IMG/VR virus record: IMGVR_UViG_2225789004_000001
Span: 1-39,414 of that record
DNA length: 39,414 bases
DNA from: a virus
Reading direction: 5' to 3' (one strand)
Part shown: piece by piece, positions 1 through 38,691 of the stretch
How positions within the stretch are numbered: position 1 is the stretch's first letter
How the letters are laid out: each line of letters starts with the position of its first letter
The notes under the pieces: model-generated
Database searches by the model: none
Told to the model about the DNA's origin: nothing
Seen by the model: the letters and a program-made list of their open reading frames with translations, nothing else
Program-made: the position numbers and the translations under genes

Positions 1-33
1 TTTCATCACTGCTGCTCATATTGACATTTCTAA
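1..33. repeat. Terminal overlap, left copy (identical to 39382..39414)
   Basis: tttcatcactgctgctcatattgacatttctaa read at both contig ends. This is consistent with a circular or terminally redundant assembly. Confidence 0.9.
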
Positions 34-1655: not shown

Positions 1656-2093
1656 TCACCGAACCCGATTTTGCATATTTTCGGCATGAGTAATCCAACG
1701 ACAGTTTTCAGGTTCATAATTTCCGTTGTTATTGATTCTGTCTAATTCTAATCCTTCTTGGTATCCGTTTTCCATCGCCCAATCAAAAAAAGATTTAAAA
1801 TCAGATTTCCAGATTTCACATACTGAAATACCTCTGCCGCCGTAATCAGGATACGCATTTCTGTTTGGATTTGAACAGCGGTCTTTCATGTTTCGCCATA
1901 CGTTATGGAGTTTATGATTCGACAATCCGTGTCGAGTCATTTTTGTTGAAACATAACATTTCCGGCACAAATCCGTTTTCCGGCGTTCCCAGTTAATCAA
2001 TTCAACTTCTCTTAATTCGCCGCAATTCGGACATTTCACATTTTCATACATTTTCGTTAATTTATTTCGTTTTCTTTTTCTCACCTCTCGCAT
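1656..2093 (-). CDS. HNH_3-type endonuclease-like protein with N-terminal Zn ribbon
   Basis: ORF track 1656..2132. CPNC...CRKC, then WRNMKDRC..NP..YPDYGGRGISVC..W and LDRINNNGNYEPENCRWITHAENMQN. ATG 2093 follows GGTGATGAAA. The start choice is uncertain. Confidence 0.65.
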   Translation of the reverse strand: MREVRKRKRNKLTKMYENVKCPNCGELREVELINWERRKTDLCRKCYVSTKMTRHGLSNHKLHNVWRNMKDRCSNPNRNAYPDYGGRGISVCEIWKSDFKSFFDWAMENGYQEGLELDRINNNGNYEPENCRWITHAENMQNRVR

Positions 2094-2098
2094 TTTCA

Positions 2099-4144
2099 TC
2101 ACCGCCTGCCGGGTTTCAACTGAAACGACCATGTTGTTTTCTTGGAAGTTGAATTTGAAACATACCGTTTTTCGAATCCCTGTAAATCCATTTCAACGGA
2201 AAAGTTACCGCTTGATAACGGTTTATATCCATTTTCGTCACACCAAATAGAATACTCATATTTGTAAAAATGAGCGGCTGTAACAGACTTTAAATATTCG
2301 TTTAATTCAGCCTTTTCGCCATAACCGTTGAGGAACTCTACGACCGGATTTGACAAGATTTCATAGGCTTTTTTCATCTCAATCACACTCTCGGAAATAG
2401 TGAATCCGTATTTTTCCATTCGCCAATATCCTTTTATTGCCTGCTGTATTAGATATTCCAACGATTCGTGCGTTGTCAGTTTATCTATCATTTTATCATC
2501 TTCATCAGTCGAGGTGAATTTTGCAATAAACGGTATCAAGATGATTCTTCGAAGAAAACCATCCGAAGTATCGTCTGTTCTTGGCGGACGGTTTCCGGCG
2601 AAGATGAATTTTGCACAATTTGAAAATTTAATCGGTGTTTGGAATTTTATATCCACTGTCACCGAATCGCCAGTGACGAGTTTCTTAAAAAGGTTTGCAC
2701 CGGACACATATCGCATATTTATGTCACTGCCGATATTGATTAATTTACCGATTAATTTATGAGTGAAAAATTGCTTATTCAAATCTTCAAAATCCAATGA
2801 TTCAATATTATTACCGCCGAAAGCTTTCGTCACTGCTTTTAAGAAAGTGGATTTGCCGTTTGCACCAGAGCCGATTAAGAAAAACGATTTTCCTTTTTCA
2901 TTTCTTGGATTCAGGCAGAAACCAATCATTTCATAGAGAAGTTTTTCTAAATCTTCGTTGTTGCAAGTGATGTCTCTCATAAATTCGTCAAATACCGGCG
3001 ATTTCGCATTTGGATTGAAATCAATCGGTAATTTAAAGAAACAAATCCTGTCCGGTGAATAATCATACACCTTTCCGGTGCGGTTACTCCAAACGCAATT
3101 GCTAAAACCAATAAATTCATACAACTCCGCATCTTGAATATCAAAATTTGGAATCGCTTCTTCGGTTGTTAAGATGAAATCAAAAATTTCATTTATTTCA
3201 TTGCGTTTGAGATTGAAAATCGTATCCATGATTAAAGATTTTAAATTATCATTACGATAAATGCCATTTTGATACGCATACGGAACTCCGTTTATCTTTT
3301 TTATGTGTAAAACATTAATCAGACATTCTGCCGCATCTTGGTGCTTAAAACCATAATGCGGTTCGACAAACTATAACTTATCCGCTTTACCGCCAGTCGC
3401 AACCGTTGCCTTTTCAAATGTCTTATCCCGAAGAATCGCATCCATTTCCTTTTTCGATAATTTCTCTTCAAAAATCATTCCATTGATGATTCGACAAACT
3501 GTTTCAACATCATCTCGATTCATCAACTTTTGAAGTCCAAGAGCAAACTCAGAAAGCGTATGATTCCGGCTTCCTTGCTTCATTTTGAAAATGGATTCTC
3601 GTTTTTTGAAATAATAGAAGAAAAACGGAAGTGGGGACAATTCATCAAACGAATAAATTTCACCAAGAAAATTGCGGTCAATGGTATCCAGTCGAATCGG
3701 CTCATAGTCCGGATTTTTGCCTTGTTCACCGCCGAGTTTATATTCACATTCCAAACCTAACGCACAAATATGTCCTTGCGGTATTTTTTTTGGAATATTT
3801 CCTCTTGGGTTCTCAATCAAATCAGGATTCTTAAAATAGATGTGGTATCCTTTTTCAGTTTGAACGACATTATATTTCAAATCAATTTCGAACATTTCTT
3901 TTTCGACAATTAATTTCAAAAGACTGACTGCGAATTTACCTTCTTCTTCGTTATCGAAATCAAGAACAACAATGCCGTTTCTAATCTCTCCGGCAATGAA
4001 GTTTTCAGTTTCATCAACATTATAAAGCAACGGTGCTGAACGTGGTTGAAGCGGCACTTTCTTTTGCTCTGCATGCCATGCTTTCGCACTTAATTTGAAA
4101 AAACCATTATAAAGAGATTGAATTTTTGGATTTTTTAAGTCCAT
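2099..4144 (-). CDS. Prim-Pol primase fused to D5/P4-type helicase, with one in-frame TAG at 3371..3373
   Basis: ORFs 3371..4153 and 2099..3229 are in the same frame (924 nt apart). The 47 codons between them have no stop. N-terminal part has VVLDFDNEEEG and GYHIYF (Prim-Pol-like). C-terminal part has Walker A GSGANGKST. ATG 4144 is preceded by GAGTGATAAAA. Confidence 0.7.
3371..3373 (-). other. In-frame TAG inside the primase-helicase
   Basis: Context ...ADKL-TAG-FVEPHYGFKHQDAAECLINVLHIKKINGVPYAYQNGIYRND... The frame stays open into the helicase domain. Confidence 0.75.
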
Positions 4145-6906: not shown

Positions 6907-6973
6907 TCCAATTATTAGTAGTAATTTTACTACAATTACATAAAGTCACTATAAGTATATATAGGTTTTGGTT
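6903..6973 (-). promoter_or_regulatory. Conserved promoter module, leftward arm
   Basis: TATATATA 6956..6963, hairpin GTAGTAA/TTACTAC 6918..6933, SD rc at 6903..6909. Shares 25 bp (6949..6973) with the 50-bp repeat. Confidence 0.6.
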
Positions 6974-7087
6974 GGATGTTTATGTTGTCTGCTATCGTTA
7001 TATTATATTATGTGTTGATTATGGGTTATTACTTTTTTATGTTTTCTTATTACTTTTTATGATTTTTTTTCAGTATTATATTTTTAA

Positions 7088-7235: not shown

Positions 7236-7367
7236 AAAGAAAATCGTTATCTATATACTATATTATTGTATTATTTTATTATTTTATAAGATATTAATTA
7301 AATATAGAAAAGTCCCCCCTAAATGATATTATAGATTTTTCTCATATTCAGACGCTGTTTCAAAAAT

Positions 7368-7383
7368 TTTACAATTTTACAAT
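7368..7383. repeat. Iteron cluster 3: two direct TTTACAAT
   Basis: Copies at 7368..7375 and 7376..7383. Confidence 0.8.
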
Positions 7384-7486
7384 ACAGTATCCTGCTATCG
7401 AATCAACCACCTACCTATTTTATTTTGCTATATAAACCCTCAAAAAACCTTCAACCGACCTCGATTGCCAGTGGAACTTTTTTCGG

Positions 7487-7673
7487 TATCAGGAGAACCG
7501 AAGTTGAAACCGTATGACCCCGACCCCGTAAAAAATTTCTTCATTTCCGGCAACTGCTGTCGAATCCGAAAAAACGGCATTTTTCGTCAAAAATCCACCG
7601 GTAATAAGAGACGGTGTAAAAATAAATCAACTTTACTTGATTTACAGATTTCGCCTTTCTGGTTCTCCTGATA
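7487..7673 (+). other. GC-rich structured element closed by a perfect 13-bp inverted repeat (candidate ncRNA or MITE-like insert)
   Basis: tatcaggagaacc (7487..7499) pairs with ggttctcctgata (7661..7673). Internal hairpins: cgaaaaa/tttttcg 7567..7586, caccg/cggtg 7596..7616, aaatcaa/ttgattt about 7623..7643. Strand is not established. Confidence 0.35.
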
Positions 7674-7717
7674 GTGATTCTTTTCTTGGATGTGAGAGTA
7701 AAAAGAAGAATTTTCAA

Positions 7718-7782
7718 CCAATAAGTATATATAGGAATAAAGACTATACTATATTGTAGGTAAATTACCTAATTGGAGTGAT
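7718..7782 (+). promoter_or_regulatory. Conserved promoter module, rightward arm
   Basis: CCAATA, TATATATA 7726..7733, 13 nt, TACTATATTGTAG 7747..7759, palindrome TAGGTAAATTACCTA 7757..7771, GGAGTGAT 7775..7782. Confidence 0.65.
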
Positions 7783-7787
7783 TAAAA

Positions 7788-8000
7788 ATGAAAATTATTG
7801 AAATGAGAATGAAATCAAAACAAATCATCGCAGAATACCAAACAAAAAATATTTTTGTTGTTGTGGATGAAGAAGTTGGACATCATCAAGTTACAAATGT
7901 GATTTCTGTTGATTCAAAAGTTGCAAAAGTTCAAGCCGGAGAATTTATCAGAGAGTTGAGAATTGATTCTTCATCAGTTGTGTTGATTTTGACGGAGTGA
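7788..8000 (+). CDS. Hypothetical early protein
   Basis: ORF track. Strong SD. Confidence 0.7.
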   Translation: MKIIEMRMKSKQIIAEYQTKNIFVVVDEEVGHHQVTNVISVDSKVAKVQAGEFIRELRIDSSSVVLILTE

Positions 8001-8233
8001 GTGAAGTGTCCGGCAGTATCATTTACAAACACATTAATAATTTAGAATCCGGCGATGTTTTGGAAGATTTATATGAAAATCATTTTATCTTCCTTCAACG
8101 AGCCGAAGAAGAATTAGAAGTCGTCAAAGTTGGCGGCGTTGGAAGTTTTTCAAAAATCTTAACCATTCCGGTTAAGAATGTTATGCAAGAAATTGGAACA
8201 GAACGATATATCAGAATTTATAAATGGAAGTGA
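7997..8233 (+). CDS. Hypothetical protein
   Basis: ORF track. GTG start overlapping the upstream TGA. Confidence 0.55.
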   Translation: MSEVSGSIIYKHINNLESGDVLEDLYENHFIFLQRAEEELEVVKVGGVGSFSKILTIPVKNVMQEIGTERYIRIYKWK

Positions 8234-8472
8234 AGCAAATGCCAGAAGAAATTATTATCACAACGGAAGAAATGGAAAATTCGGCGAGGGTTCTTCGCCT
8301 GCTCGGAACGAATGAAGGACTTGCCGAGTTGAAAGAACGAAAAGACATCAAACCGGAAGATGTTTCAAATGGATTGCGAACCGCATGGGTGATTGTTACA
8401 TCTCTAATTGAAGCAAAGACGGAATTAATCCTGACAAACGACCCGGCGGCAGAGAAGGTGGAATTGAAATGA
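8224..8472 (+). CDS. Hypothetical protein
   Basis: ORF track. Overlapping starts and stops suggest translational coupling. Confidence 0.6.
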   Translation: MEVKQMPEEIIITTEEMENSARVLRLLGTNEGLAELKERKDIKPEDVSNGLRTAWVIVTSLIEAKTELILTNDPAAEKVELK

Positions 8473-8777
8473 AATTCACGCCGGAACAAGAGAAAGTTAT
8501 GCAATCCGCAATCGCAACTTTCGGAATTGATGACCAAACCATCAAAGCGATTGAAGAGTTTTCGGAACTTAATGTTGAGTTGGCGAAAATGGTAAATGCA
8601 CCGGACTTCTTCGACCAAGAAAGATACGATGCTATGGTTGAGGAAATGGCGGATTCGCATATCATGCTTTATCAACTCAAAACGATGTATAAGGTTTCAG
8701 ATGAGGAATTGAATCTGAAAATTTTTGAAAAATTGAAACGTCTCGAAGAATTAATTGATTTTGTGAGAAGTGATTAA
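8469..8777 (+). CDS. MazG-like nucleotide pyrophosphohydrolase (small, all-helical)
   Basis: EEFSELNVELAK and MVEEMADSHIMLYQL resemble the paired EExxE/D metal-binding helices of MazG-type NTP-PPases. ATGA overlap with the upstream gene. Confidence 0.5.
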   Translation: MKFTPEQEKVMQSAIATFGIDDQTIKAIEEFSELNVELAKMVNAPDFFDQERYDAMVEEMADSHIMLYQLKTMYKVSDEELNLKIFEKLKRLEELIDFVRSD

Positions 8778-9097: not shown

Positions 9098-9514
9098 ATG
9101 TGGCAAATTGCTGACATGATTCTGGCACGGAAGATAAGCGAATCTTTGCGGATGAAATCCGATTTCCGGATAAACGGAGTTTCGGTTATTTTCATTTCCG
9201 CAGATAAAATTTTTCCATATCATCTTGATTTTTTCTTGGAAGATGGCGACACTATCAATCTTGATTTCTTGGTTAATCGCACTGTCGATATAGATTTCGA
9301 TTATGAATACTATGATGAGAGAGAAGAATTTATTTTCGAGATTATTGAAATGAGTTCCGGCTTGAATCAGTTCGATAAAGAGAAAAGGAATAGGATGTTA
9401 TTGAAAGAAGAATATTTATCGCCGCCGGAACTAAAAAGATTGCTCGCAATAGAAGGATTTTATGAATATCAAAAATTCAGAGTAAAAAACGGACAAAGAG
9501 TATATATAGGATGA
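9098..9514 (+). CDS. Hypothetical protein
   Basis: ORF track. Its 3-prime end overlaps the next promoter module. Confidence 0.65.
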   Translation: MWQIADMILARKISESLRMKSDFRINGVSVIFISADKIFPYHLDFFLEDGDTINLDFLVNRTVDIDFDYEYYDEREEFIFEIIEMSSGLNQFDKEKRNRMLLKEEYLSPPELKRLLAIEGFYEYQKFRVKNGQRVYIG

Positions 9515-9557
9515 AATACTATACTATATTGTAGGTAAATTACCTAATTGGAGTGAT
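9494..9557 (+). promoter_or_regulatory. Conserved promoter module
   Basis: TATATATA 9501..9508, 13 nt, TACTATATTGTAG 9522..9534, TAGGTAAATTACCTA hairpin, GGAGTGAT 9550..9557. Confidence 0.65.
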
Positions 9558-9562
9558 AAGAA

Positions 9563-9751
9563 ATGATTTATAGAGTTTGTTATAGCAGTATTCATTATGA
9601 TGCCGAAGAAGATGATGAATTTTCCGCATTTGATTCGGATTATTTCTCAACCAGAGAAAAAGCAGAAGAGTTTGCCAAGAAGGTCAGCGGCGATGTCGAT
9701 GAAATCACCGAAGAACATTTTGAAAGATTGAGAGTTCCGTTGAGAGGTTAA
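9563..9751 (+). CDS. Acidic hypothetical protein
   Basis: ORF track. Confidence 0.7.
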   Translation: MIYRVCYSSIHYDAEEDDEFSAFDSDYFSTREKAEEFAKKVSGDVDEITEEHFERLRVPLRG

Positions 9752-10446: not shown

Positions 10447-10515
10447 CCAATAGTTATTTATAGGAACGGATACTTTACTATATTGTAGTTTCAAAATACT
10501 ACAATTTGGAGTGAT
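10446..10515 (+). promoter_or_regulatory. Conserved promoter module (TATTTATA variant)
   Basis: AACCAATA, TATTTATA 10455..10462, 13 nt, TACTATATTGTAG 10476..10488, hairpin GTAGT/ACTAC, GGAGTGAT 10508..10515. Confidence 0.6.
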
Positions 10516-10519
10516 AAAT

Positions 10520-10645
10520 ATGCAGTATAATAAAAACATGACAGCTTGCGAAATCGAAAGTCAGTTGGAAAGAATCCAGAAGGAATATTTTGTTTCAGAA
10601 TCCGAAGCACGAGATATGTTCATTAATATGCGAATGGATGTGTAA
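10520..10645 (+). CDS. 41-aa protein
   Basis: Hand translation: MQYNKNMTACEIESQLERIQKEYFVSESEARDMFINMRMDV. Sits behind the promoter module and SD. Confidence 0.5.
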   Translation: MQYNKNMTACEIESQLERIQKEYFVSESEARDMFINMRMDV

Positions 10646-12141: not shown

Positions 12142-12211
12142 CCAAAGATTATATATAGGAAGACATCCCTATATAGTATTGTAGTAAAATGATACTACAA
12201 CTTGGAGTGAT
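12142..12211 (+). promoter_or_regulatory. Conserved promoter module (last one before the long rightward operon)
   Basis: CCAAAGAT, TATATATA 12150..12157, 13 nt, ATATAGTATTGTAG, hairpin GTAGTA/TACTAC, GGAGTGAT 12204..12211. Preceded by a long T-run. Confidence 0.6.
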
Positions 12212-12215
12212 TAAA

Positions 12216-12713
12216 ATGAAAACTTTGAACCAACTTTTGATTGAAAAGAAAATCGCATCTGAAAAATACAGTAATGCAATTCGCACGATGGATTGGATGG
12301 GTGAAGATAAAGACTTTGTTGAATCTTATCGAATTGCTTGTATCAATAAAGATGCCGAAGTTGCTCAAAAGAGACAAGAGAATAGAGATTGTGACAAATA
12401 TCTCGAAGAAGAGAGAAAACACCAAACCACTTTTAAAAATCTTCCGGAAGAATTTAAAAACATTGTTCCGAAAATTATGGAAATGGCAGAAACAGAAAAT
12501 AGATTCTGGGGTGAATGTTATGCGATTTCGTTTTATAATAAAGTCGCAAAATACACCAAAGGAAATGAGGAGATTAAAAGATTTTACTTCACCGGAGTTG
12601 AAGTTCTTGGTTTGGTAATCGGAAATGGCGGTGCTTTCGAAGTCAGAACAATTTTCGCAGGCGGTTGGAATGTTCAGAGATTTCATTACAGGGTTATCGT
12701 AACCCCTGTTTAA
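12216..12713 (+). CDS. Hypothetical protein
   Basis: Track ORF 12189..12713. ATG 12216 follows the SD. Confidence 0.7.
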   Translation: MKTLNQLLIEKKIASEKYSNAIRTMDWMGEDKDFVESYRIACINKDAEVAQKRQENRDCDKYLEEERKHQTTFKNLPEEFKNIVPKIMEMAETENRFWGECYAISFYNKVAKYTKGNEEIKRFYFTGVEVLGLVIGNGGAFEVRTIFAGGWNVQRFHYRVIVTPV

Positions 12714-12776
12714 TTTTTTTAAAGGAATAATCCAAACTTTTATCTCTTTTGAATTCATCATCTTTCTTGGTGATTT

Positions 12777-13238
12777 ATGATGAATTCATTTATTTACAAT
12801 CTTCTGCGACCTCTCGTTATTAAATGGGAAGTCCACAATGCTGACATCTGGCGTTCCAAACTTGATTCCGGTGAAACAATTACGGCGGTGGAACTGAAAA
12901 GAAGTTTTCCGTTTATCCTTCGTTGTGCCGATTCAGAATATCGAGTCATCGACTACGATGCTTTGGTTGAATTTGTGAAATTTGACTGGACGGATTCGAA
13001 GAAATATAAACCGGAAGAATTCGACTGTGACAATTACGGTGCGGAATTCGATGGGAAAATCAAATCATTCGGTAACTTCACTTGTGCAAGAGTGCATGGT
13101 TATTTCTCTTGGGTGAATGGAAATCATGAATGTATTTGCTGTTATACAACCAAAGGATGGATTCTCTTGGAACCTCAAAACAATACCTTCTATCCGATTG
13201 AAGATTATATTAAATGGGGCGAACTCTCGTTGATGTAA
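12777..13238 (+). CDS. Transglutaminase-like Cys peptidase (candidate lysin)
   Basis: FDCDNYGAEF ... ARVHGYFSWVNGNHECICCY ... GWILLEPQN matches the Cys / His / acidic-residue spacing of transglutaminase-fold peptidases. Confidence 0.45.
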   Translation: MMNSFIYNLLRPLVIKWEVHNADIWRSKLDSGETITAVELKRSFPFILRCADSEYRVIDYDALVEFVKFDWTDSKKYKPEEFDCDNYGAEFDGKIKSFGNFTCARVHGYFSWVNGNHECICCYTTKGWILLEPQNNTFYPIEDYIKWGELSLM

Positions 13239-13295
13239 TTATTTTAAATACCATTAGAGCCATGTTGTTTTATTTACACTTCAAAACGTGACAGC

Positions 13296-13805
13296 ATGGC
13301 ATCTTCTCAATTACCAAAAACTCTGGAATTTTGGCTCTCGGATAAAGGGCTTCTCATTTTGAATAGTTTCGGTAGAGCCGGAATGACTGTTAAAGAAGTG
13401 TGTGAAAAAATCTCTATTTCTCAAAAAATATTTAAAGCATGGATGGAAACACACCATTCGATTCGAAATGCGTTTAATCTGGAAGAACGGAATTATATTG
13501 ATATTGTTGAAGGCAAACTTTTAAAAGCCGTAACCAATGAAATTGAAACCTACAACGAAAAAAGCGTTGTTGAAAGAATTGTTTATGATTCCGAAGGTAA
13601 ACAAGTTGGTAAGGTTGTCACAAAAAAGACAGTTGAAAAGCCGATTAAAATCGAATCTGAATTAATGAAATTTTATCTCACCAATCGTGCGGCAGATAAA
13701 TGGGCGTATTCACCTGAACCAATTAAGAAACGAAATGTTTCAAAATTAGAGGAAATTATGCAAGAATGGGTATCGGAAAGCAATAAAGAGAGTGATGAAG
13801 AATGA
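13296..13805 (+). CDS. terS: Terminase small subunit-like HTH protein
   Basis: N-terminal HTH (GMTVKEVCEKISISQKIFKAWM), then ...IVEGKLLKAV... and ...FYLTNRAADKW... typical of TerS proteins. Positioned upstream of terL. Confidence 0.5.
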   Translation: MASSQLPKTLEFWLSDKGLLILNSFGRAGMTVKEVCEKISISQKIFKAWMETHHSIRNAFNLEERNYIDIVEGKLLKAVTNEIETYNEKSVVERIVYDSEGKQVGKVVTKKTVEKPIKIESELMKFYLTNRAADKWAYSPEPIKKRNVSKLEEIMQEWVSESNKESDEE

Positions 13806-14521
13806 AAGTTTTAGTTACCGGAACAACACACGGAATTGGACATTCAATTGCAAGGTTATTCTTGGAAGAAGGACATTTGGTTGTCGGGTTGGATATTGAA
13901 CCTGAAATCGACCCTTTAAGTGCCGAGTTTGCCGATTGGAAATTTTATCAATGTGATGTCGGAAAGCCGGAAGAATTGCCGGACGAATCTGATTTTGAAA
14001 TCATCGTAAATAACGCCGCAACTACGGATGAAAAATCCGCAATTCAGACCAATCTTCTTGGTTATGTGAATGTTGGTGAAAAATACGCTTTCCAAGAAAG
14101 AATTAAATCAGTTGTAAACATTTGTTCAATATCATCAGTTAGTGGAATTGAATTGCCGAATTATTGCATTTCAAAAGGCGGTAATTTAGCATATTCACAA
14201 AACTTATCTCTTCGATTAGCACCAAGAGCAACAGTAAATGCGATTATCTGCGGCGGTGTGATTACTAAAATAAATCAAGAGATTTTAGATGACGAGAAAC
14301 TTTACCAAATGTGTAAAGACGAAACCCTTCTTGGAAAATGGTGTCAGCCAAGAGAAGTGGCAGATTTAGTTTATTATTTGACAGTTGGAAATAAATCTAT
14401 CACTGGACAAACTATAACTATTGATAACGGTGAATGTGCCAAATTCAATTTTATTGGAACTTCCGAAGTTAAAAATGAATTTTATAAATCACAGTTTAAA
14501 AGGAGTGAATTATATGAGTAA
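13802..14521 (+). CDS. Classical short-chain dehydrogenase/reductase (SDR)
   Basis: TGTTHGIGHSIA (TGxxxGxG), NNAA, catalytic Ser region CSISSVSG, YCISK (YxxxK). Confidence 0.85.
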   Translation: MKVLVTGTTHGIGHSIARLFLEEGHLVVGLDIEPEIDPLSAEFADWKFYQCDVGKPEELPDESDFEIIVNNAATTDEKSAIQTNLLGYVNVGEKYAFQERIKSVVNICSISSVSGIELPNYCISKGGNLAYSQNLSLRLAPRATVNAIICGGVITKINQEILDDEKLYQMCKDETLLGKWCQPREVADLVYYLTVGNKSITGQTITIDNGECAKFNFIGTSEVKNEFYKSQFKRSELYE

Positions 14522-15080
14522 AACAAACGAAATTTCTGTTCTCGATATTGATATTGAACAAATTAAAAAATATGAAAACAACCCAAGAGAAAATGCGGAA
14601 TCAATTCCTTATGTTGTAAACTCAATTAAGGAATATGGGTTTAAAAATCCAATTGTTTTGGATTCCAACATGGTTATTATCGCCGGACATACAAGATTTG
14701 AAGCCGCAAAGATTCTTGAAATGAAAACAGTTCCGTGTATAATTGCGGAAGATTTGACGGAAGAGCAGGCACGAGAGTTCCGATTAATTGACAATAAAAC
14801 TGCGGAATTGTCTTATTGGAATTTTGATAAACTTTTAGAAGAGATTTCGCATTTGGAGTGCGATTTAACGCAATATGGATTCAATGACATTCAAGATAGT
14901 ATTCGAGATTTAGATGATGTTGATGAAATTACAGAAGATAATTATAAGAATCCGGAACAAGCGAAAAAGAAATGTCCGGCTTGCGGTCATGTTGATTTCG
15001 TTGTAAATTTCAGAATTGTTAAAAATGAAGCAGTATCATCAACACCAACTTTCGAAGAACCTGACGAGGAATTTGAGTGA
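14514..15080 (+). CDS. ParB N-terminal (ParB/Srx) domain protein with C-terminal Zn ribbon, DpdB-like
   Basis: YENNPRENAESIPYVVNSIKEYGFKNPIVL..IIAGHTRFEAAKILEMKTVPCII. CPACGH near the C-terminus. ATG 14514 follows AAAGGAGTGAAT. Confidence 0.75.
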   Translation: MSKTNEISVLDIDIEQIKKYENNPRENAESIPYVVNSIKEYGFKNPIVLDSNMVIIAGHTRFEAAKILEMKTVPCIIAEDLTEEQAREFRLIDNKTAELSYWNFDKLLEEISHLECDLTQYGFNDIQDSIRDLDDVDEITEDNYKNPEQAKKKCPACGHVDFVVNFRIVKNEAVSSTPTFEEPDEEFE

Positions 15081-15838
15081 AGATTTTCTTATCAGCAGTC
15101 GAAGGGTCTGAAAAACATATTATCGACAGATGTATTAGAGAAGGAATTAATCTCAAATACATTTTAATTTCTTATTTTCACCTTCGCAAAAACGAAAAAA
15201 TATTCAACAAATTAAGATTAATTTGCGATGAAATGCTCATCGACAGCGGGGCACACTCTTTTCAAAAAGGTTTTAAAGTTGATTTTTATGAGTTTACCAA
15301 AGAATATGCTCAATGGATTATCGAAAATGATTGCGACCAAATGACTGGTTATTTTGAGATGGATATTGACAATTTAATCGGTTATGATGAGGTTAAAAAA
15401 CTTCGTGCAATTCTCGAAGCCGCACACCCGACAAAAATAATTCCGGTATGGCACGCAACGAGAGGTGTGGAAGAGTTCGAAAAAATGTGTGAAGAATACG
15501 CAGGTCGAATCGTTGCCATTTCCGCAATTAGAAATAAAGACATTTCAGACGACCAGTATATGATGTTTTTGAAAACAGCAAAAAAATATGGATGTAAAGT
15601 TCATGCTCTTGGAATGACACGAACAAATTTATTAAATAAAGTTCCTTTTGATTATACAGATTCATCAACATGGAAACAAACTGGTAATTATGGCGGTTTC
15701 GCCAAATTTACAGGATGTAAAATGAAAGTCGTTAGTGCGGCAGGTGGTCTGAAAACTTATTATTTAGATTTTCATAATTTAAAAGAATTTATGAAAATGC
15801 AACAGTATTTCGAAGCAAAATATAAACATTTAGAATAA
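15077..15838 (+). CDS. dpdA: DpdA-like DNA transglycosylase (TGT superfamily)
   Basis: LIDSGAHSFQKG resembles the TGT DSGGFQ catalytic strand. FDYTDSSTW resembles the second conserved Asp strand. ILISYFHL is a TIM-barrel strand. Neighbours are ParB-like and YhhQ genes. Confidence 0.6.
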   Translation: MKIFLSAVEGSEKHIIDRCIREGINLKYILISYFHLRKNEKIFNKLRLICDEMLIDSGAHSFQKGFKVDFYEFTKEYAQWIIENDCDQMTGYFEMDIDNLIGYDEVKKLRAILEAAHPTKIIPVWHATRGVEEFEKMCEEYAGRIVAISAIRNKDISDDQYMMFLKTAKKYGCKVHALGMTRTNLLNKVPFDYTDSSTWKQTGNYGGFAKFTGCKMKVVSAAGGLKTYYLDFHNLKEFMKMQQYFEAKYKHLE

Positions 15839-15844
15839 AAGGAT

Positions 15845-16540
15845 ATGATTGAAATGATACAGAATGAATTGCTGTTTTTTGTCACCATGTTGGTGAACTT
15901 CTCCGGCATCTTGATTGCTTATAAATTGTTTGGTAAACAAGGTCTTTTCGTATGGATGGGGCTTGCGATTGTTATAACTAACATCGAAGTCCTCAAATGC
16001 GTGGATATGTTCGGATGGGCTGTCACGTTAGGAAATGTGATATACGGCACAACTTTCTTGGTTACGGACATCCTTAACGAGAAATATGGTGTAAAAAAAG
16101 CACGGATGGCGGTTATGGTCGGATTCTTTGCGATGATTGTTTTCACGGTTATCATGCAGGTAAATCTTCTCTTCGAAGTGAATGCCGCCGACTTTTCCAA
16201 AGATGCTTTTGAAACAATCTTCGCCGTTCTGCCAAGAATTGCAATCGCTTCTATTATTGCTTATCTTGTCGCAAATCTTATTGATGTTCAAGTTTATCAT
16301 TTCATCAAAAAGGCATTGCCGGACGATAAGTGGTTATGGGTGCGAAACAACGGCTCATCCCTCTGCGGACAAGCAATCGACACTGTTATTTTTGGAATTA
16401 TCGCATTTATTGGACTTTACGAATTTCCGATAATTTTCCAACTCACAATAACAAGTTATATCTTAAAATTTGTGATTACTCTTTGCGAAACACCGTTTTT
16501 ATACATTGCGAAACGAATAAAGCCGATTTACGATGAGTGA
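15845..16540 (+). CDS. yhhQ: YhhQ/DUF165 (VUT) family queuosine-precursor transporter
   Basis: Polytopic membrane protein. GNVIYGTTFLVTDILNEKYGVKKAR and SSLCGQAIDTVIF match YhhQ signatures. Confidence 0.7.
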   Translation: MIEMIQNELLFFVTMLVNFSGILIAYKLFGKQGLFVWMGLAIVITNIEVLKCVDMFGWAVTLGNVIYGTTFLVTDILNEKYGVKKARMAVMVGFFAMIVFTVIMQVNLLFEVNAADFSKDAFETIFAVLPRIAIASIIAYLVANLIDVQVYHFIKKALPDDKWLWVRNNGSSLCGQAIDTVIFGIIAFIGLYEFPIIFQLTITSYILKFVITLCETPFLYIAKRIKPIYDE

Positions 16541-17867
16541 AATATTTAATCCAAAGCAAAAGCGTTCTTTTAGACGTTTTATTCAAAAAGCGTTTAAAAG
16601 AATTAACTTTTTTGAAGGGTCGGTATCATCTGGAAAGACCTACATCACATTGATTCTTTGGTCTCTCTGGGTGATGTCACGACCGCCGCAATCAGTCCAT
16701 CTTATGTTCGGAAGAACTATCACTTCTTTGGAACGTAATTGTCTGCTTCTTTTGACGGAACTGTTCGGCGAAGAAAATGTTCAATACTCTGTTTCTTCGA
16801 AAAGGATGCGACTATTTGGCAGGCTTGTCTGGTTAGAAGGTGCGGATAACGAAAGAGCCAGAGCGAAAATTCAAGGTTTAACGATTGATTCAGTGTATGG
16901 TGATGAACTCCCACTCGTTCCGGAAACCTTTTTTAACATGGTTCTTTCTCGTATGAGGATTCTCGGCTCGAAAGGATTTTTTACCGGAAACCCCGATGAC
17001 CCGACAAATTACGTTAAGAAGAATTGGATTGACCGCATTGAAGAGGACGATTTAGATATGATGGTTGAACATTATCATATCTGCGATAATTCGATGTTTC
17101 TTCCGGAAGGTTATATTGAAAATTTATAGAAAGAATACACTGGCGTGTTCTTCAAACGTTACATAGAAGGTCTTTGGGTTGTTGCCGAAGGTGCAGTTTA
17201 TCAATTGTTTGGCGATAATTCAGACGATTATATTATTGATTTGAAAGATTACAATTTTGATAATTTAATGTATATCAACATTGGCATAGATGTTGGTGAA
17301 ACAGAATCCGGAACTGCGTTCACAGCAACCGGCTTTGAGAAAAATTATGCCGGCATTGTTGCTCTGGATGCCGACTGGATTAAAGGAAATGCCTTAACCG
17401 ACCCCACCGCACTTTACGAAGCGTTTCATGCTTTCTTGGCACGGCAACAATATGACGGTGTGAAGGTAAAAGCGATTTATTTCGATAAGGCTCAACAATT
17501 TTTAAAACGTGGTTTAGTAACTTATCTTTCTTCCAAAGGAATCAACATCCAAGTTTACGATAGTTTAAAATATCCTATCAACGATAGAATTATGGTTACA
17601 AACGCATTATTTTCAACATATAAATTAAAAATAAGCACACGATGTCCGCATTTGATAAAAGCGTTTAAAGAAGCAGTTTGGAAAGCGAATACAACGCCGA
17701 TGGAACGACTTGATGACTTCACTTCTGACATTGATAGTTTAGATTCGTTTGAGTATTCAATCGAAGATGGAATGTATAACATCGTCACCTTTTTACAGAA
17801 ACCAAAAATCAGATTTCCAAAAGAAAATTTAATGATAAAGTTACAAACGCAGAGGTTATATGAATGA
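16533..17867 (+). CDS. terL: Terminase large subunit, with one in-frame TAG at 17127..17129
   Basis: ORFs 16533..17129 (Walker A GSVSSGKT, Walker B VYGDE) and 17145..17867 (nuclease half, IGIDVGETESG) are in the same frame (612 nt apart). Codons 17130..17144 (KEYTG) are open. Confidence 0.85.
17127..17129 (+). other. In-frame TAG inside terL
   Basis: ...PEGYIENL-TAG-KEYTGVFFKRYIEGLWVVAEGAVY... Confidence 0.8.
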
Positions 17868-19252
17868 ACACATTAATCGACCCAATCCTTCGGAAAGTTT
17901 TTCAAAAAGAAACATTTCTGGATGAAAAATGGCTTGCCAATTTGAAAAAGTGGAACGATTGGTATCGCAATGATGCACCGTTTCATACCAAGATGGTTTG
18001 GAACGGCGATGCTTATCAAAGTTACAAAATGTGCCGCACCGGTATCGTTAAATTGATTTGTTCAACAAAAGCAGATTTGATGATGAATGAAAAGGTGACG
18101 ATTACAGTTTCTGACAAATATAAAAAAGAATTTGACGAAATGTTGGAAGATAACAATTTCTGGATTCGAATGAATCAAGCCGTTGAATTGTCGCAAGCAT
18201 TTGGTTATTATGGAGTTATCATCGACAAGGATATGGATGAGAAAATTGTTTTGAATTACATTTCCGCAACCGGAATTTATCCAATTACCGCAGTAAACGG
18301 CGAGATTACCGAATGTGTTTTCATGACAAGCGTTCACCGTTCCAATCATGAGGTTTTGAGATTGGAAGGACATTTCTTGGAAGAAGGGAATTATGTTATC
18401 CGCAATGCGTATGTGAAAAGAGAAGCATACGGAAAATTGACTGTTATGGATGTTGAAGGCTTCGGACAAGAGCCGGAAATACGAACAAATTCACCGACAA
18501 GAAGGTTTGCCATTCTCTCTCCAAACGCAGTAAACAATATTGACCCTGATATTTCTCTTGGAATCCCATGCTTCGCCAATTCGATTTATGACATTAGAGC
18601 GGCGGATTCAGCATACGATTCTTATCAGAATGAATTTATTCTTGGAAGAAAAAGATTGATTTATTCCGCCGAAGCCGCCAAACCAAGCCATGACGGCGAA
18701 CTTGTTCCTAATTTTGACCCGACTGAAATCGGATATATGCGTGTTGATATGCGGAATCCGGATAAACCTTTTATTGAGGAATTGAACATGGAAATCCGTG
18801 CCGAAGAACACCGCACCGGATTAAATGATATTTTGAACATGATTTCGGTGAAATGCGGTCTTGGTTTAGGTTATTTTTCATTTGAAGGAAAAGAAGGATT
18901 TAAAACCGCAACCGAAGTTGTCAGTGAGAAATCCGAACTCTTCCGTTCAATCAAAAAAGATGAAATTCAAATCGACAAAGTTATCCGAATCATTGTTGAA
19001 GCCATTTTTGAATTGAAAGGTTGGATTTTCAACAATGAGGAATTAACGATTATTTTTGATGATTCAATTATCGAAGATAAAGCGGCATTGCAGGCACGAG
19101 CGTTCCAAGAAGTGGTGCAAGGAATCAGAACGCCGGAATCATATTATAAATTGATTTATGGTTATTCTGATGAAGATATTGCGGAAACAATTCCGGAAAA
19201 TTACGGTCAAAGTATCGTTGAACAACTTGGTTTAAACAGATATACAGAGTGA
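17864..19252 (+). CDS. Portal protein
   Basis: 462 aa, immediately after terL with an ATGA overlap. Size and position fit SPP1-type portals. Confidence 0.7.
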   Translation: MNTLIDPILRKVFQKETFLDEKWLANLKKWNDWYRNDAPFHTKMVWNGDAYQSYKMCRTGIVKLICSTKADLMMNEKVTITVSDKYKKEFDEMLEDNNFWIRMNQAVELSQAFGYYGVIIDKDMDEKIVLNYISATGIYPITAVNGEITECVFMTSVHRSNHEVLRLEGHFLEEGNYVIRNAYVKREAYGKLTVMDVEGFGQEPEIRTNSPTRRFAILSPNAVNNIDPDISLGIPCFANSIYDIRAADSAYDSYQNEFILGRKRLIYSAEAAKPSHDGELVPNFDPTEIGYMRVDMRNPDKPFIEELNMEIRAEEHRTGLNDILNMISVKCGLGLGYFSFEGKEGFKTATEVVSEKSELFRSIKKDEIQIDKVIRIIVEAIFELKGWIFNNEELTIIFDDSIIEDKAALQARAFQEVVQGIRTPESYYKLIYGYSDEDIAETIPENYGQSIVEQLGLNRYTE

Positions 19253-19257
19253 ATTAA

Positions 19258-25280: not shown

Positions 25281-25922
25281 ATGGATTTATTAAAATCGGA
25301 TTTACATCCGATTTTTACTTATAAGAAATGGGATTTCACATTAAATCTTTCTTTGGAACGTGTTCTTAATGCCATTTCTGCACTTGATGAAGAAGCGGAC
25401 ATAAAACAACTCGACCGCTTCTATCTCGTTTTGGATAATTTACTTGATGTCAATTCTAATGATTTTGATACTTTTGAGTATCTTGAAGAAATGACTTGTT
25501 TTGAACAATAGGAAGTTTTCACCATATTGCTGAAAACCTTCGTATTTCCGCCGGAATCTGCGATAAAACGCTCAACTCCATCTTTCGATATTAACTATGA
25601 TTTTGAACTCGTTTATACAGCGATTTTGAAGGCTTTTAATATTGACATTATCGACCAAAAAGAAGTGCTTTCTTGGAACAAATTCAGAGCCTTATTAAAA
25701 GATGTGAATGAAGATTCGATGTTAAATCGTGTTATTGAAATTCGAGAAATGCCTTTACCGCCTGCTACCAAGAAAAATATGGAACGGCGTGCTGAAATCA
25801 GGCGTGCGAAAAAGAAATATGACCTTCCGCACCTGAAAAAAGCAAGAAAGGAAAAAGAACGAGAGACATTGAGAAAGATGGCGGAAATGCAAAAGAAGGC
25901 GGAAGAAAATGGCAACACCTGA
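25281..25922 (+). CDS. Tail assembly chaperone-like protein, with one in-frame TAG at 25509..25511
   Basis: ORFs 25281..25511 and 25527..25922 are in the same frame (246 nt apart). Codons 25512..25526 are open. The basic C-terminal tail overlaps the tape measure start. Confidence 0.5.
25509..25511 (+). other. In-frame TAG in the chaperone gene
   Basis: ...EEMTCFEQ-TAG-EVFTILLKTFVFPPES... Confidence 0.65.
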
Positions 25923-28646: not shown

Positions 28647-30445
28647 TACCGCAATCATCGCAATATTATGTCAATGTTGATAAACCGATAAGAGAACCGT
28701 TCCACCCGACAGTTTTACTTTCATCTTCTGACCCGACATTGATTGCAAAAACACAGTTCGATTCTTCATCATCAGAACTTGTTTTTTCAAAACGTAACCA
28801 ACTTTTTAACCAAATTGTTAATCCTTCTTGGGGATTGCAAACTTTCGAACCAAATAGAACCATTGCAGATGGCAGTTTTGTCGTTTTTGATGATAATACC
28901 GCAGGTGAATTTGGATGGTGGTCGGAAGCAAGATGTGATGAGAATGGAGTTTTTGAAACACCGCAAATTATCAAACTAAACTACACGGAAAATTTAAATT
29001 TCATTGAGTTCAGTATCTTTTTCGATTCTTTTGGTAAAGAATGGTCTGATGATTTTGAAATTTTCTTTTATTCCCAATCCGGTGCAGTTATTCAAAGTTA
29101 TCATATTACCGATTGTGATTCTCCGATTTATCTGATTGAAAATGAATTAAATTTCGTCAGAAGTATGGAAATCAGAATCAATAAATGGTCTGTCGGACAC
29201 CGATTCGCAAAGATTTCAGAATTACTTTCAGGATTCGTTATTTCTTTCACCGATGACGAAATATTTGGAATTTCATTCACTGAAAATTTATCGCTTTTCC
29301 AAGAAGAAATCATCTCGTCAGAATTGTTAATTACAGTTGAAAATTTCAACCAACAGTTCAACATTAATAATCCGCAAGGTGTAGCGAAAAAATTGAATTT
29401 GAGACAAGTTTTCACTGCCGCAATTTCTTTGGAACATGAGTCTATTCCTCTTGGTCTAATGTATCTCATGGAACAACAAAATAACGACCGCAACTTCATT
29501 ACGTTTGTTTGTCGTTCGGTTTTTGATTTTAGCGAAGATGAATATATTCCAGAATCGTGGGAAACTTGTTCTGCATATTCATTATTTGAAAAATTATTCC
29601 AAAAAATTGGAATAAATGAATACGATATTCCTGAAAGTTTGAAAAATATTCAAGTAAATCAGTATGTCGAAAAAATGTCAATCAGACAAGCAATTCAACA
29701 ACTCGCAAATTCTGTTCGTTGTGTTGTTTATGTAAACAGAACCGGAAGTGTAACTGTCGATACCATCAATTCGTTATTTTCGCATACCGGACAATCTATC
29801 ACTTTAAATCAGAACACAACCGAAGAACCACCGAGAGTTGAAAAGTTAAAAACTAATGATTCAGCAACGGTGAATATTTATCAATATTCCAAAGATGATG
29901 AAATTGGAAATACGGAACTTGTAAAGGATTTTAAAGTTTTGGTTGATTCACCAACCCCAGTTTCGTATATTATTTCATACAAAACTATCGCTGATTCTGT
30001 AACCGCAGAAGTTACTGGCGCATCTGTTAGCGGCAATATTCTCTATTATGCAGATAGATGTGAAATTATGCTTTTCGGTCAAGGTGAAGCAGTTGTAAAT
30101 ATTTCAGGCACTCCTGTTTTACAAAAAATCGGAAAAGTTAATATAAAATCAGATTTATTTTATTTGAATCCGATTAAAGAGGATTATCTGATTGAAAATC
30201 AATTTATCGCATCCACTTCGGAAGGACGAATACTCGCAAGTGCATTTGTTGAATTTTCACAATTTAGATTGCGACATGAAGTTTACGAACGTGGCAGACC
30301 GGATTTGGAAGTTGGAGATATGATTAATGTCGAAAATGAGTTTGGACTTTTAACCAATGGAATCATTTTTGAACAAAATATCGAATTTAACCAGAATGGA
30401 TTTTTAGAAGGAAAAATGATTATCAAAGCAAAAGGTGAAAATTAA
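28643..30445 (+). CDS. Baseplate or tail-tip structural protein
   Basis: 600 aa, positioned after the tape measure gene. Confidence 0.55.
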   Translation: MIPQSSQYYVNVDKPIREPFHPTVLLSSSDPTLIAKTQFDSSSSELVFSKRNQLFNQIVNPSWGLQTFEPNRTIADGSFVVFDDNTAGEFGWWSEARCDENGVFETPQIIKLNYTENLNFIEFSIFFDSFGKEWSDDFEIFFYSQSGAVIQSYHITDCDSPIYLIENELNFVRSMEIRINKWSVGHRFAKISELLSGFVISFTDDEIFGISFTENLSLFQEEIISSELLITVENFNQQFNINNPQGVAKKLNLRQVFTAAISLEHESIPLGLMYLMEQQNNDRNFITFVCRSVFDFSEDEYIPESWETCSAYSLFEKLFQKIGINEYDIPESLKNIQVNQYVEKMSIRQAIQQLANSVRCVVYVNRTGSVTVDTINSLFSHTGQSITLNQNTTEEPPRVEKLKTNDSATVNIYQYSKDDEIGNTELVKDFKVLVDSPTPVSYIISYKTIADSVTAEVTGASVSGNILYYADRCEIMLFGQGEAVVNISGTPVLQKIGKVNIKSDLFYLNPIKEDYLIENQFIASTSEGRILASAFVEFSQFRLRHEVYERGRPDLEVGDMINVENEFGLLTNGIIFEQNIEFNQNGFLEGKMIIKAKGEN

Positions 30446-31875
30446 TGCAACCTTCAAGTGATATTATTTATATAACTTTTAACGAAGAGAAAATAGGATA
30501 CAATGGAACAGTCTATCCTATTTTAAAATCTTCTTTATCTACAATAACACCCTTTTTGGAATTTTCAGATAAAGATAAAAATCCATTGAAATTTTATTTA
30601 GATTCTCAATCGGAAACAACTTGGTTTTATATTATTCGATTTGATGCTAAAATAGGAATAAATAAAATTTATATTCACCCATCCAATATCAATAATAGTA
30701 GCATTGATGTTTTTGATGATTATTACGATTTAAGTAAAGGATTAGATGGAAGATTACAAGTATCAGACCCTTCAACAGGTGGTAATGAAGCGGCTTATCT
30801 TGCTTTGGTTTGGCGAAACAGTTTAACAGGAAGCACAATAGCTAACAGAGTAATCCAAGAAGTAGATGGATTACGATATGTAGGTAACTTCTCTCATTTT
30901 ATCAGACCTATATCATCTGTTAAAAACAAAGATTCTTTCGGTGATACATGGGAAGCAAAGGTTGAACATAATAACATTTATTCGAGATGTATATTTGGTT
31001 TTTCTATGCCAAGCCTTAATACAAATTCATATTCAGAAGGTATTAAAAAAGGAAATAACAATAGTTTATCAACAGGGAATAATATTTATTATAACGAATC
31101 AAATTCATCATCATTTAAAACAGATACTGATGCTGAACATGTAAAAACTGATATTTTTGGATTCAATACATTTGAAAATGGCGGTAACAGTTATTTTATT
31201 TCAGAAGATTATTCGAGTAAAATCGAAAGTGGATTTAAGCAAAGAAATCCGAATAGTGGATTACAAACTAACATTAGACATGAATTGAAAATTTGGTCTT
31301 ACGGCGTTAATTTGTCAGATAATTATAAATTATCAACCAAATGGTTTTGGATTCGAAAAAGAACAAATCCGATTCCGAATACCTTTATAATCACTATAAA
31401 TGACGATTAGGAATTTATACCAATTCCTCAATATGCATGGTTTTCTACATCTCCTATTAATGATTTTGATTTTAATAGAATTTCAAATAATATCGCAGTG
31501 TGTTGGACGATTCTTAATAAGATGGGTTATGTGAATCAATTTAGAGAAATGAGATGTGATTTCGATTTTTTTGAACATTTAGACGACCATATTCGTTTAT
31601 CCAAAGAATGGAAGAACATGAGAGAGAATTTGTGGGATTTGTATAAAGTATTTCCTTTGGTACAAATGTTTCCGGAAGCACCGATTTATGTTCAGTTTGT
31701 TGAACCGTCACCAAGAAATCCGGTGGAAGCATTAACGGCAAGTTTATTAAATTCAATGGAAATTAACTTGGCAAACTTATATTACTATTTAACGATATTA
31801 GAATTTGAAAGATTACCGATATTAATGACTGAAAACAGAATGAGACAAAGAATAGTGAGGAAACCGAATGACTGA
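30445..31875 (+). CDS. Tail fibre or receptor-binding protein, with one in-frame TAG at 31408..31410
   Basis: ORFs 30445..31410 and 31498..31875 are in the same frame (1053 nt apart). All 29 codons between them are open, and there is no SD-like motif before the downstream fragment. Confidence 0.5.
31408..31410 (+). other. In-frame TAG in the fibre gene
   Basis: ...IITINDD-TAG-EFIPIPQYAWFSTSPINDFDFNRISNNIAVCWTIL... Confidence 0.6.
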
Positions 31876-34292: not shown

Positions 34293-34523
34293 TTATCTCT
34301 TTTTCATTAATTCGTCTATCTGATACTGTAAATACTAACATTCATCGCCTAAATCGTTATAGCGATAAACCAATTTATTGTAGGCATCTGTATTCGGAAT
34401 TTGACAAATCAGGAAAACATTCTGAACTTTCATAAATTCCTTTGTGACTTTTTCTAATTTCGTTTTCAATTTTGAAATCTTTCGTTTATGGAAATACTTT
34501 TCAATAAAATTCATTTTAATCAC
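34293..34523 (-). CDS. Small protein, with one in-frame TAG at 34335..34337
   Basis: Track ORF 34335..34523 ends in TAG. The same frame continues YLQYQIDELMKKR to TAA at 34293..34295, 5 nt before the terminator stem. Confidence 0.5.
34335..34337 (-). other. In-frame TAG
   Basis: ...YNDLGDEC-TAG-YLQYQIDELMKKR-TAA. Confidence 0.5.
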
Positions 34524-38390: not shown

Positions 38391-38393
38391 CTA
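38391..38393 (-). other. TAG at the ORF end (ambiguous: stop or sense)
   Basis: ...NLTLI-TAG-EMEQSSKFFNFFGVKICKPTIFKCL-TGA. The extension has no independent support. Confidence 0.3.
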
Positions 38394-38619: not shown

Positions 38620-38691
38620 TCACTCCAAATTAGGATTTAATCCTACAATATAGTAAAGTATCTATAAGTATATATAGGTTTTGGTTAAACC
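38620..38691 (-). promoter_or_regulatory. Conserved promoter module
   Basis: TATATATA 38669..38676. Hairpin TAGGATT-T-AATCCTA 38631..38645 has compensatory changes relative to TAGGTAA-A-TTACCTA. SD rc at 38620..38626. Confidence 0.65.
38642..38691. repeat. 50-bp perfect repeat, copy B (identical to 1605..1654)
   Basis: Identical string read at both loci. Confidence 0.85.

Follow-up and report, generated by a model that had tools for sequence, protein, structure and literature searches.

A primase-helicase gene probably continuous across an in-frame amber codon, one of four conserved TAG codons in tailed phage genomes without tRNA genes

The window analysed here is a 39,414-nucleotide (nt) stretch of viral DNA, positions 1 to 39,414 of IMG/VR record IMGVR_UViG_2225789004_000001. 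On its minus strand, two open reading frames (ORFs) that are annotated as a primase and a helicase probably form a single primase-helicase gene, in which an in-frame amber codon (TAG) is translated as one amino acid and is one of four amber codons held at fixed positions. The same four TAG positions recur in a second, diverged complete genome, and neither genome carries a tRNA gene; an earlier sequence-only reading of this DNA, which had proposed the joining of the two ORFs, had neither point. The main interest of the case therefore lies in a conserved, tRNA-less and minimal set of amber codons rather than in the fusion itself.

Results

A single frame interrupted by one TAG

From ATG 4144-4142 to TGA 2101-2099 the minus strand holds a single frame of 682 codons, whose sole internal stop is the TAG at codon 258 (plus-strand coordinates 3371-3373; Table 1). 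Exactly 47 codons without a stop, FVEPHYGFKHQDAAECLINVLHIKKINGVPYAYQNGIYRNDNLKSLI, lie between this TAG and ATG 3229, which corresponds to M306 of the joined product. The frame, the 47 stop-free codons and the fused product of 681 residues, all of which had been put forward by the sequence-only reading, held on recounting. In the public gene calls (ena:ERZ27245259:k141_1727189, 39,486 bp) the region is split into two ORFs with a gap of 141 nt: P0241, of 257 amino acids (aa), under the JGI name "Bifunctional DNA primase/polymerase, N-terminal", and P0001, of 376 aa, as "phage/plasmid primase, P4 family, C-terminal domain". ATG 4144 is preceded by GAGTGATAAAA-ATG (GAGTGAT-AAAA), a motif common to other genes of the genome. 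The sequence upstream of ATG 3229, AATTTAAAATCTTTAATC-ATG, has no Shine-Dalgarno motif.

Homology continues across the TAG

An open frame past a stop codon is weak evidence for a continuous gene, because neighbouring genes in the same frame give long open stretches after TAA or TGA as well. The decisive evidence is homology across the TAG. The PHROG family phrog_864 ("DNA primase") matches residues 57-664 unbroken when the TAG is bridged (E = 1.5e-110), and homologs of 618-688 aa without any interruption can be aligned over the junction, a single residue occupying the TAG column. The continuous homologs include P0002, P0004 and P0005 (686-688 aa), relatives of about 625 aa, and the more distant contig L008 described below. 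Across 15 aligned homologs, I284 and Y296, both encoded within the 47 codons, are invariant; M306 is conserved in the closest relatives only. These results bear out the proposed fusion of a Prim-Pol and a helicase through the TAG: the homologs found retain the linker, and a family profile spans it. A nucleotide search of the gene against GenBank phages gave no match.

In the C-terminal half, NCBIfam TIGR01613, the model for the C-terminal domain of P4-family primases, matches residues 344-648 with 182.9 bits (cut-off 108.7; profile positions 2-304 of 304), and the Walker A motif GSGANGKST lies at residues 425-433, with G425, N429, G430, K431 and T433 invariant in the 15 homologs. Pfam DUF5906 also matches the product, as does Pfam D5_N (PF08706), at 31.4-34.7 bits against a gathering threshold of 22.4, over residues 299-394 and profile positions 54-145; the alignment leaves out profile positions 1-53, where the TAG region would fall. 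In the N-terminal half, Pfam Prim-Pol (PF09250) stays under its threshold (17.1 versus 22.8 bits, E = 0.008, residues 55-116), yet the motifs of the archaeo-eukaryotic primase (AEP) superfamily are present: motif I, DxD (LDFD, L61-D62-F63-D64), is invariant in our close-subfamily alignment A3 and nearly so in alignment A1, as is motif II, sxH (G99-x-H101-I-Y-F). A search of the 681-aa product against profiles, which had been suggested as a check, thus gave a mixed picture. The PHROG family spans the TAG, and TIGR01613 and D5_N pass; Prim-Pol falls below its cut-off, and no Pfam model crosses the TAG.

An AlphaFold2 model of the fused product (mean predicted local distance difference test score, pLDDT, 76.5) is confident for the PrimPol part to about residue 243. 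The only low-confidence inter-domain segment comprises residues 244-254 (pLDDT <50), and the TAG falls at its C-terminal edge. Residues 268-308 are modelled at pLDDT 88-90, with helices at 268-278 and 301-308 and strands within 282-297, so that a helicase begun at M306 would lose a helix and a small-sheet element. Among solved structures, the SaPI5 primase-helicase (7OLA) comes closest both in sequence profile and in fold, and its profile match begins at the TAG region (profile position 245). Together, conservation and predicted fold support the view that the 47 codons encode genuine protein and are not a spacer. The earlier suggestion that they resemble a linker or D5_N region stands insofar as the stretch is coding, conserved and predicted to be folded; the Pfam D5_N match itself starts only at residue 299. 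The analysis as a whole supports one PrimPol/D5_N/P4-type helicase gene joined through the in-frame TAG.

These observations bear directly on the annotated arrangement, in which the TAG is a true stop and a separate helicase starts at ATG 3229. Standard-code gene callers yield exactly these two ORFs, and some phages do have separate genes for primase and helicase, as T4 does with gp61 and gp41. Such a start would, however, have to leave out the conserved, folded element 5' of ATG 3229, use an ATG that lacks a ribosome-binding site (RBS), and place the initiator at a methionine that is unconserved beyond the closest relatives. It would also require the terminase gene described below to be split ahead of its invariant EYxGV...R.I.G motif, and no conserved start codon follows any of the TAGs. 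We therefore regard two separate genes as highly improbable. As part of the overall explanation that we favour, the 257-aa and 376-aa ORFs would in all probability be an artefact of standard-code gene calling. Termination followed by reinitiation was considered separately and rejected, there being no conserved in-frame start after any TAG and no Shine-Dalgarno motif at ATG 3229.

Table 1. Features of the primase-helicase gene, the other TAG-containing genes and the repeated element. Identity is that of the protein to its counterpart in IMGVR_UViG_3300028601_000087.
Feature	Coordinates	Strand	Description	Identity
Primase-helicase gene	2099..4144	-	AEP-type PrimPol, linker, D5_N-like domain and P4/D5-type SF3 helicase; 681 aa including the TAG-encoded position	62%
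In-frame amber TAG, codon 258	3371..3373	-	C-terminal edge of inter-domain linker; context GAT AAG TTA TAG TTT GTC GAA	
PrimPol (archaeo-eukaryotic primase-like) domain and helical bundle, residues 1-257	3374..4144	-	Entire product if the TAG terminates	
47 codons between TAG and annotated helicase ATG	3230..3370	-	Predicted folded N-terminal element (helix and small sheet) of D5_N/helicase module	
Annotated 376-aa "helicase" ORF, P0001	2099..3229	-	Probably a truncated call; ATG without Shine-Dalgarno motif	
Large terminase subunit (TerL), TAG 17127-17129	16533..17867	+	phrog_2 5-421 unbroken; Terminase_6N 27-225	66%
Phage_Gp15-like gene, TAG 25509-25511	25281..25922	+	PF06854 8-182 unbroken, E 4.6e-22; directly upstream of tape-measure gene	66%
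Tail protein, TAG 31408-31410	30445..31875	+	TAG exactly at junction of divergent N-terminal and conserved C-terminal parts	35%
Repeated element, 64-79 nt, six copies	7719-7791, 9494-9566, 10448-10520	+	Always in the orientation of the next gene	
	1591-1654, 6915-6978, 38628-38691	-		

The TAG is conserved in diverged relatives

Scans of IMG/VR with single proteins (primase, TerL) gave no close relatives, and alignment-based scans were needed. The Logan contig L001 encodes a primase 64% identical to that of the window and carries TAG at the homologous codon (...KPDKL-TAG-FLEQYYGFKHQ); near-identical contigs from other samples (L006 and L007/L011) share the TAG of this lineage. In a third lineage, L009, which is 56-59% identical to the window and to the L001 lineage, the corresponding sequence is ...IPDKL-TAG-FVEQYYGFKHQ. 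The second lineage is also represented by a complete genome, IMGVR_UViG_3300028601_000087 (33,593 bp, 127-nt terminal overlap), from landfill biofilm metagenome 3300028601, and here each of the four TAG-containing genes of Table 1 has its TAG at exactly the codon that corresponds to that in the window; no gene has TAG as terminator.

The codons that flank the TAG differ synonymously between the genomes (AAG/AAA, TTA/CTT, TTT/TTC). Across these genes the two complete genomes use the same codon for 52% of identical amino acids, so that synonymous sites are near saturation. Counted as a glutamine synonym in 18 long genes, TAG would make up 4 of 253 Gln codons (4 TAG versus 249 CAA plus CAG), and a synonym as rare as this would be extremely unlikely to be retained at four of four sites. 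Either TAG is selected at these positions, or it encodes something that has no synonym.

This pattern disposes of the suspicion that might attach to a single metagenomic contig, namely that the TAG is a sequencing or assembly error or marks a decaying pseudogene. Assemblies made independently (ENA, Logan and three JGI samples) show the same primase TAG. Moreover, the interruptions are always TAG and never TAA or TGA, and the flanking codons vary synonymously while the TAG is kept. We consider the chance of error or decay negligible.

The TAG positions are not entirely static in the wider group. In the second complete genome the tail gene at 18878, which follows a good RBS, contains a further, lineage-specific TAG at codon 17 (MSQLAAKDLIGSLTIT*AEAV...). 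The window has Phe there, and TAGs can therefore arise away from domain junctions. The more distant contig L008 (JGI24708J26588_10001870; 45% identity) has D at the primase site. At 7327-8571, however, it encodes an SNF2-type helicase with an in-frame TAG between the two lobes, where the uninterrupted homolog on contig L003 has Leu, and none of its 19 counted ORFs ends in TAG, the SNF2 read-through TAG aside. The use of TAG would thus be a property of a wider clade and not confined to late genes.

Three further genes contain TAG, and TAG is avoided as a terminator

Four genes of the window contain one in-frame TAG each: the primase-helicase gene, TerL, a Phage_Gp15-like gene and a tail-protein gene. 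All 28 TerL homologs examined are continuous across the TAG column. The tail protein, which has no family match in Pfam or PHROGs, is almost unalignable with its relative (18878-20278) before the TAG and well conserved after it, and the conserved C-terminal part has no start codon of its own close to the TAG. As judged from this alignment, the TAG is the exact boundary of a swapped module.

No gene of the window is interrupted by TAA or TGA. With TAG read as sense, the 53 predicted genes end in TGA (27) or TAA (26) and never in TAG; when the standard code is applied, one or two small ORFs (38391, 34335) are all that end in TAG apart from the four, and they have no long continuation. Among the more distant primase and terminase relatives, 13-40% of genes end in TAG. 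The share of TGA, at half of the gene ends, is unusual for a phage of low-G+C Bacillota with 36% G+C.

The two small ORFs deserve separate mention. The first, a 74-aa ORF at 38391-38615 (minus strand) behind a copy of the repeated element, ends at TAG 38393-38391, which is followed by a 45-nt spacer that includes the RBS for the Erf-like gene coming next (37648-38343). The 25 residues that read-through would append overlap this gene, and no homolog of the ORF was found in the relative genome. The second, at 34293-34523 (minus strand) downstream of the DNA polymerase gene, has TAG 34337-34335 followed by 13 in-frame codons, YLQYQIDELMKKR. These resemble a coiled-coil continuation, and this TAG may be a candidate for a fifth in-frame TAG.

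No tRNA gene and no common context at the TAGs

ARAGORN found no tRNA gene in the complete window, which also gave no Rfam match at E <= 1; IMGVR_UViG_3300028601_000087 has no tRNA by ARAGORN and no Rfam tRNA match. A decoder of TAG would therefore have to come in trans. The residues aligned with the TAGs differ from gene to gene: K in 26 of 28 TerL homologs, D or E in the uninterrupted primase homologs, and a variable residue in the Gp15-like family. The four TAGs have no +4 base in common (A, G, G and T), and no PYLIS-like structure follows them.

We consider it possible, though on balance doubtful, that the four codons serve programmed partial read-through, a refinement of the explanation that we favour in which a leaky TAG sets the ratio of a 257-aa PrimPol to the 681-aa protein and acts alike in the other three genes. 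Several positions fit this idea. The primase TAG lies, according to the structure model, at the edge of a disordered linker and after a complete folded PrimPol, and the tail-protein TAG lies exactly at a module junction. The Gp15-like gene occupies the slot before the tape measure, where two-product recoding is the rule in siphoviruses; Xu and colleagues reportedly described the G/GT tail-chaperone frameshift as conserved in 2004. Retention of TAG at all four sites despite near-saturated synonymous change would also be accounted for, and no suppressor tRNA would be necessary if low-level near-cognate read-through sufficed. Yet if TAG terminated efficiently, its avoidance as an ordinary terminator in both genomes would be unexpected. 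It is hard to see a use for a terminase fragment consisting of the ATPase alone. Codon 17 in the relative, the site of the extra TAG, is no domain junction, and the sites share neither a conserved stimulating structure nor a +4 base.

A different account, which we rate as rather unlikely, is that the phage simply matches the code of a host that reads TAG as sense or ambiguously, either through constitutive pyrrolysine (the proposed archaeal Code 34) or through an undescribed bacterial amber reassignment. It would explain the absence of tRNA genes in two complete genomes, the scarcity of TAG and the fixed positions together, since an amino acid with a single codon would account for fixed positions without regulation. 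Near-absent TAG terminators combined with a few in-frame TAGs are the pattern of pyrrolysine-decoding archaea, in which 1.6% of stops are TAG and a handful of genes contain TAG (PMC4153887; 10.1101/2024.09.30.615893). The habitats of the relatives, among them the landfill biofilm above, are methanogenic, and no peptidoglycan hydrolase was recognised among the scanned genes. The host clues point the other way. All portal homologs (30-36% identity) are in phages of Bacillota, the distant primase homologs (<=36% identity, among 185k reference genomes) are mostly in genomes of Clostridia and other Bacillota, and the divergent control region contains good sigma-A-like promoters (TTTACA-17-TACAAT); the structural genes suggest a bacterial host. 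In bacteria, very few proteins are reported to contain pyrrolysine, TAG being a stop elsewhere (10.1101/2024.09.30.615893), and the missing PYLIS-like structure likewise speaks against this account.

Genome context and the repeated element

The first 33 nt of the window (1-33) are identical to its end (39382-39414), 36 nt having been trimmed from each end of the 39,486-nt contig. This terminal overlap indicates a circularly closed, complete genome of about 39.38 kb. Its gene content is siphovirus-like, with a minus-strand replication module (DNA polymerase, Erf, primase-helicase, HNH) and a plus-strand morphogenesis module (terminase, portal, head, tape measure and tail proteins).

The repeated element listed in Table 1 has the form ...AAGTATATATAGG...ACTATACTATATTGTAGG-TAAATTACCTA..GGAGTGAT-N4-5-ATG, and contains a short hairpin (TAGGTAA/TTACCTA). 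Copies stand at the head of the replication-side and small-gene operons, and the element is also conserved in the relative genome. A box, TATATATA, about 25 nt 5' of the hairpin fits the sigma-70 -35/-10 pattern poorly, and judging by sequence and placement the element is probably a phage-specific promoter, operator or leader. Counts of promoter and terminator consensus motifs did not differ from those in shuffled sequences. The copy at 6915..6978 (minus strand) heads the operon that contains the primase-helicase gene. Early expression of this gene is suggested by its position, since it lies in the first minus-strand operon, behind the element copy that adjoins the divergent control region.

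Some neighbouring genes are of interest in their own right. An HNH endonuclease gene at 1656-2132 (minus strand; phrog_374, E = 1e-43) shares 34 nt with the 3' end of the primase-helicase gene. Its codon usage fits that of the remaining genome poorly, as would be expected of a mobile homing-type gene. The 594-aa "DNA polymerase" matches phrog_1252 (E = 4e-123), with no Pfam match and no PDB sequence match. Upstream of the terminase, the plus-strand block 12189-15838 contains a match to phrog_887, "queuine tRNA-ribosyltransferase" (15077-15838, E = 1e-34; no Pfam or NCBIfam match), together with a short-chain dehydrogenase (13802-14521) and a ParB_N-domain protein (14418-15080). From these similarities the block may be a DpdA-like module for DNA (7-deazaguanine) modification, or the phrog_887-matching protein may be a candidate for a tRNA-directed activity that influences decoding. 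Among the roughly 40 proteins scanned against Pfam or PHROGs, no endolysin, holin or integrase was recognised.

Discussion

The explanation that we favour as probable is one primase-helicase gene in which the TAG at codon 258 would be read as a single amino acid to give the 681-aa protein. The decoder would act in trans and could be a host suppressor or other TAG-decoding tRNA, near-cognate host tRNAs, or an unrecognised factor. Wherever termination did occur at the primase TAG, it would release a free and fully folded PrimPol domain of 257 aa. In the genome at large, TAG would have all but ceased to serve as a terminator and would persist at a small number of fixed codons, most of them close to domain boundaries. 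The avoidance of TAG as a terminator implies that decoding would be efficient enough to matter genome-wide, and favours true reassignment over rare leakage. At the retained sites the TAG would likely be a selected control point, whether as a throttle on the full-length protein, a gate, or a setter of the isoform ratio.

Several points weigh against this explanation. No decoder was found, neither a suppressor tRNA (CUA) nor a release factor. The residues at the TAG columns (K, D/E, L, F or variable) show no consistency, so that the usual signature of TAG as Gln appears to be absent; the sites are few, and the residue may nevertheless be Gln, which would be tolerable at the charged positions. 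Downstream of the TAGs there is no conserved RNA structure, the folding z-scores of 60- and 100-nt segments being inconsistent and not shared by the two genomes. The 74-aa ORF at 38391-38615, as the only good candidate for a TAG-terminated gene, may indicate that TAG still terminates to some degree. The clue to the host is that the portal homologs are in Bacillota phages, and read-through itself is inferred from sequence comparison.

The sequence-only reading had also drawn a contrast between a TAG in an early replication gene and the lytic-switch model proposed for some recoded phages. For this genome the contrast is correct, insofar as a replication gene is recoded. It is not new and adds little, because the authors of that model had already reported that the recoding of replication genes is variable. 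The early timing is suggested by gene position.

Why the finding matters is partly practical. Standard-code annotation fragments the primase-helicase, the terminase and two tail genes, and public records carry the fragments. Beyond this, amber recoding has so far been described as extensive and tied to phage suppressor tRNAs that switch on late genes. The present clade stands apart, with only four or five TAGs, fixed over deep divergence, one of them in the replication module, and with no tRNA; it would represent either an early or minimal stage of a code change, or a distinct role in which a stop codon serves as a conserved control point. With so few sites, the clade is a tractable system in which to address the decoding of TAG and the reason for its retention. 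More speculatively, and as a tentative proposal only, small tailed phages of anaerobic habitats may carry fixed amber codons in replication, packaging, tail-assembly and tail-tip genes without any suppressor tRNA, either as gates or isoform setters or as the first recognised viruses of TAG-reading hosts (pyrrolysine-using ones, for example), in which case the primase TAG would be selected and not neutral.

The closest known systems are the amber-recoded (code 15-type) phages, which include crAss-like, Lak, Garnet and Amethyst phages; the Garnet and Amethyst phages form small Firmicutes-infecting clades with genomes of 34 +/- 5-6 kb (10.1101/2021.08.26.457843; PMC11210395). In the described recoded clades 26-71% of genes bear TAG, recoding of replication genes is variable and is extensive in Lak phages, and a suppressor (Sup-CTA) tRNA was detected in only 40-52% of genomes (10.1101/2021.08.26.457843; PMC11210395). 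The present phage resembles them in having in-frame TAGs in conserved genes, including structural ones, in having abandoned TAG as a terminator and in lacking a detectable Sup-CTA tRNA, which is common there; it is also like Garnet and Amethyst in genome size and likely host phylum. It differs in the low proportion of genes with TAG (4 of about 55, or about 7%), in TAG positions that are fixed across relatives with 35-66% protein identity, in aligned residues that are K, D/E, L and F and not Q, and in that two complete genomes are entirely without tRNA.

As a protein, the fused product belongs with the class that joins an AEP primase to an SF3 helicase, of which P4 alpha, poxvirus D5 and African swine fever virus C962R are members. 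As in these and in the SaPI5 primase-helicase (7OLA/7OM0), the C-terminal module consists of a D5_N-like domain and, after it, a P4-type SF3 helicase that carries a Walker A motif. Unlike those genes, which are uninterrupted, the present one has a stop codon between the primase and D5_N modules, and the N-terminal PrimPol is weakly related to Pfam Prim-Pol.

Programmed recoding offers a second comparison. Programmed read-through of UGA gives two products in Q-beta, one of them the A1 protein. As there and in the G/GT frameshift of tail chaperones, recoding at a module boundary could here give a short and a long product at a fixed ratio, and one of the four TAG genes sits in the tail-chaperone position. 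In contrast to programmed read-through systems, no stimulatory context or structure was found at the TAGs of this phage, and TAG is avoided as a terminator genome-wide.

The pyrrolysine-decoding archaea, in which TAG is ambiguous or wholly reassigned (the proposed Code 34), are similar in that TAG terminators are very rare and a few in-frame TAGs are scattered over ordinary and mobile-element genes, an arrangement in which the element needs no decoder of its own (10.1101/2024.09.30.615893; PMC12626013). No virus that uses Code 34 is described in these papers (10.1101/2024.09.30.615893; PMC12626013), and the structural genes of the present phage, unlike what such a host would suggest, resemble those of Bacillota phages. 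Set beside these systems, the phage and its relatives are best described as a sparse, positionally fixed and tRNA-less variant of amber recoding.

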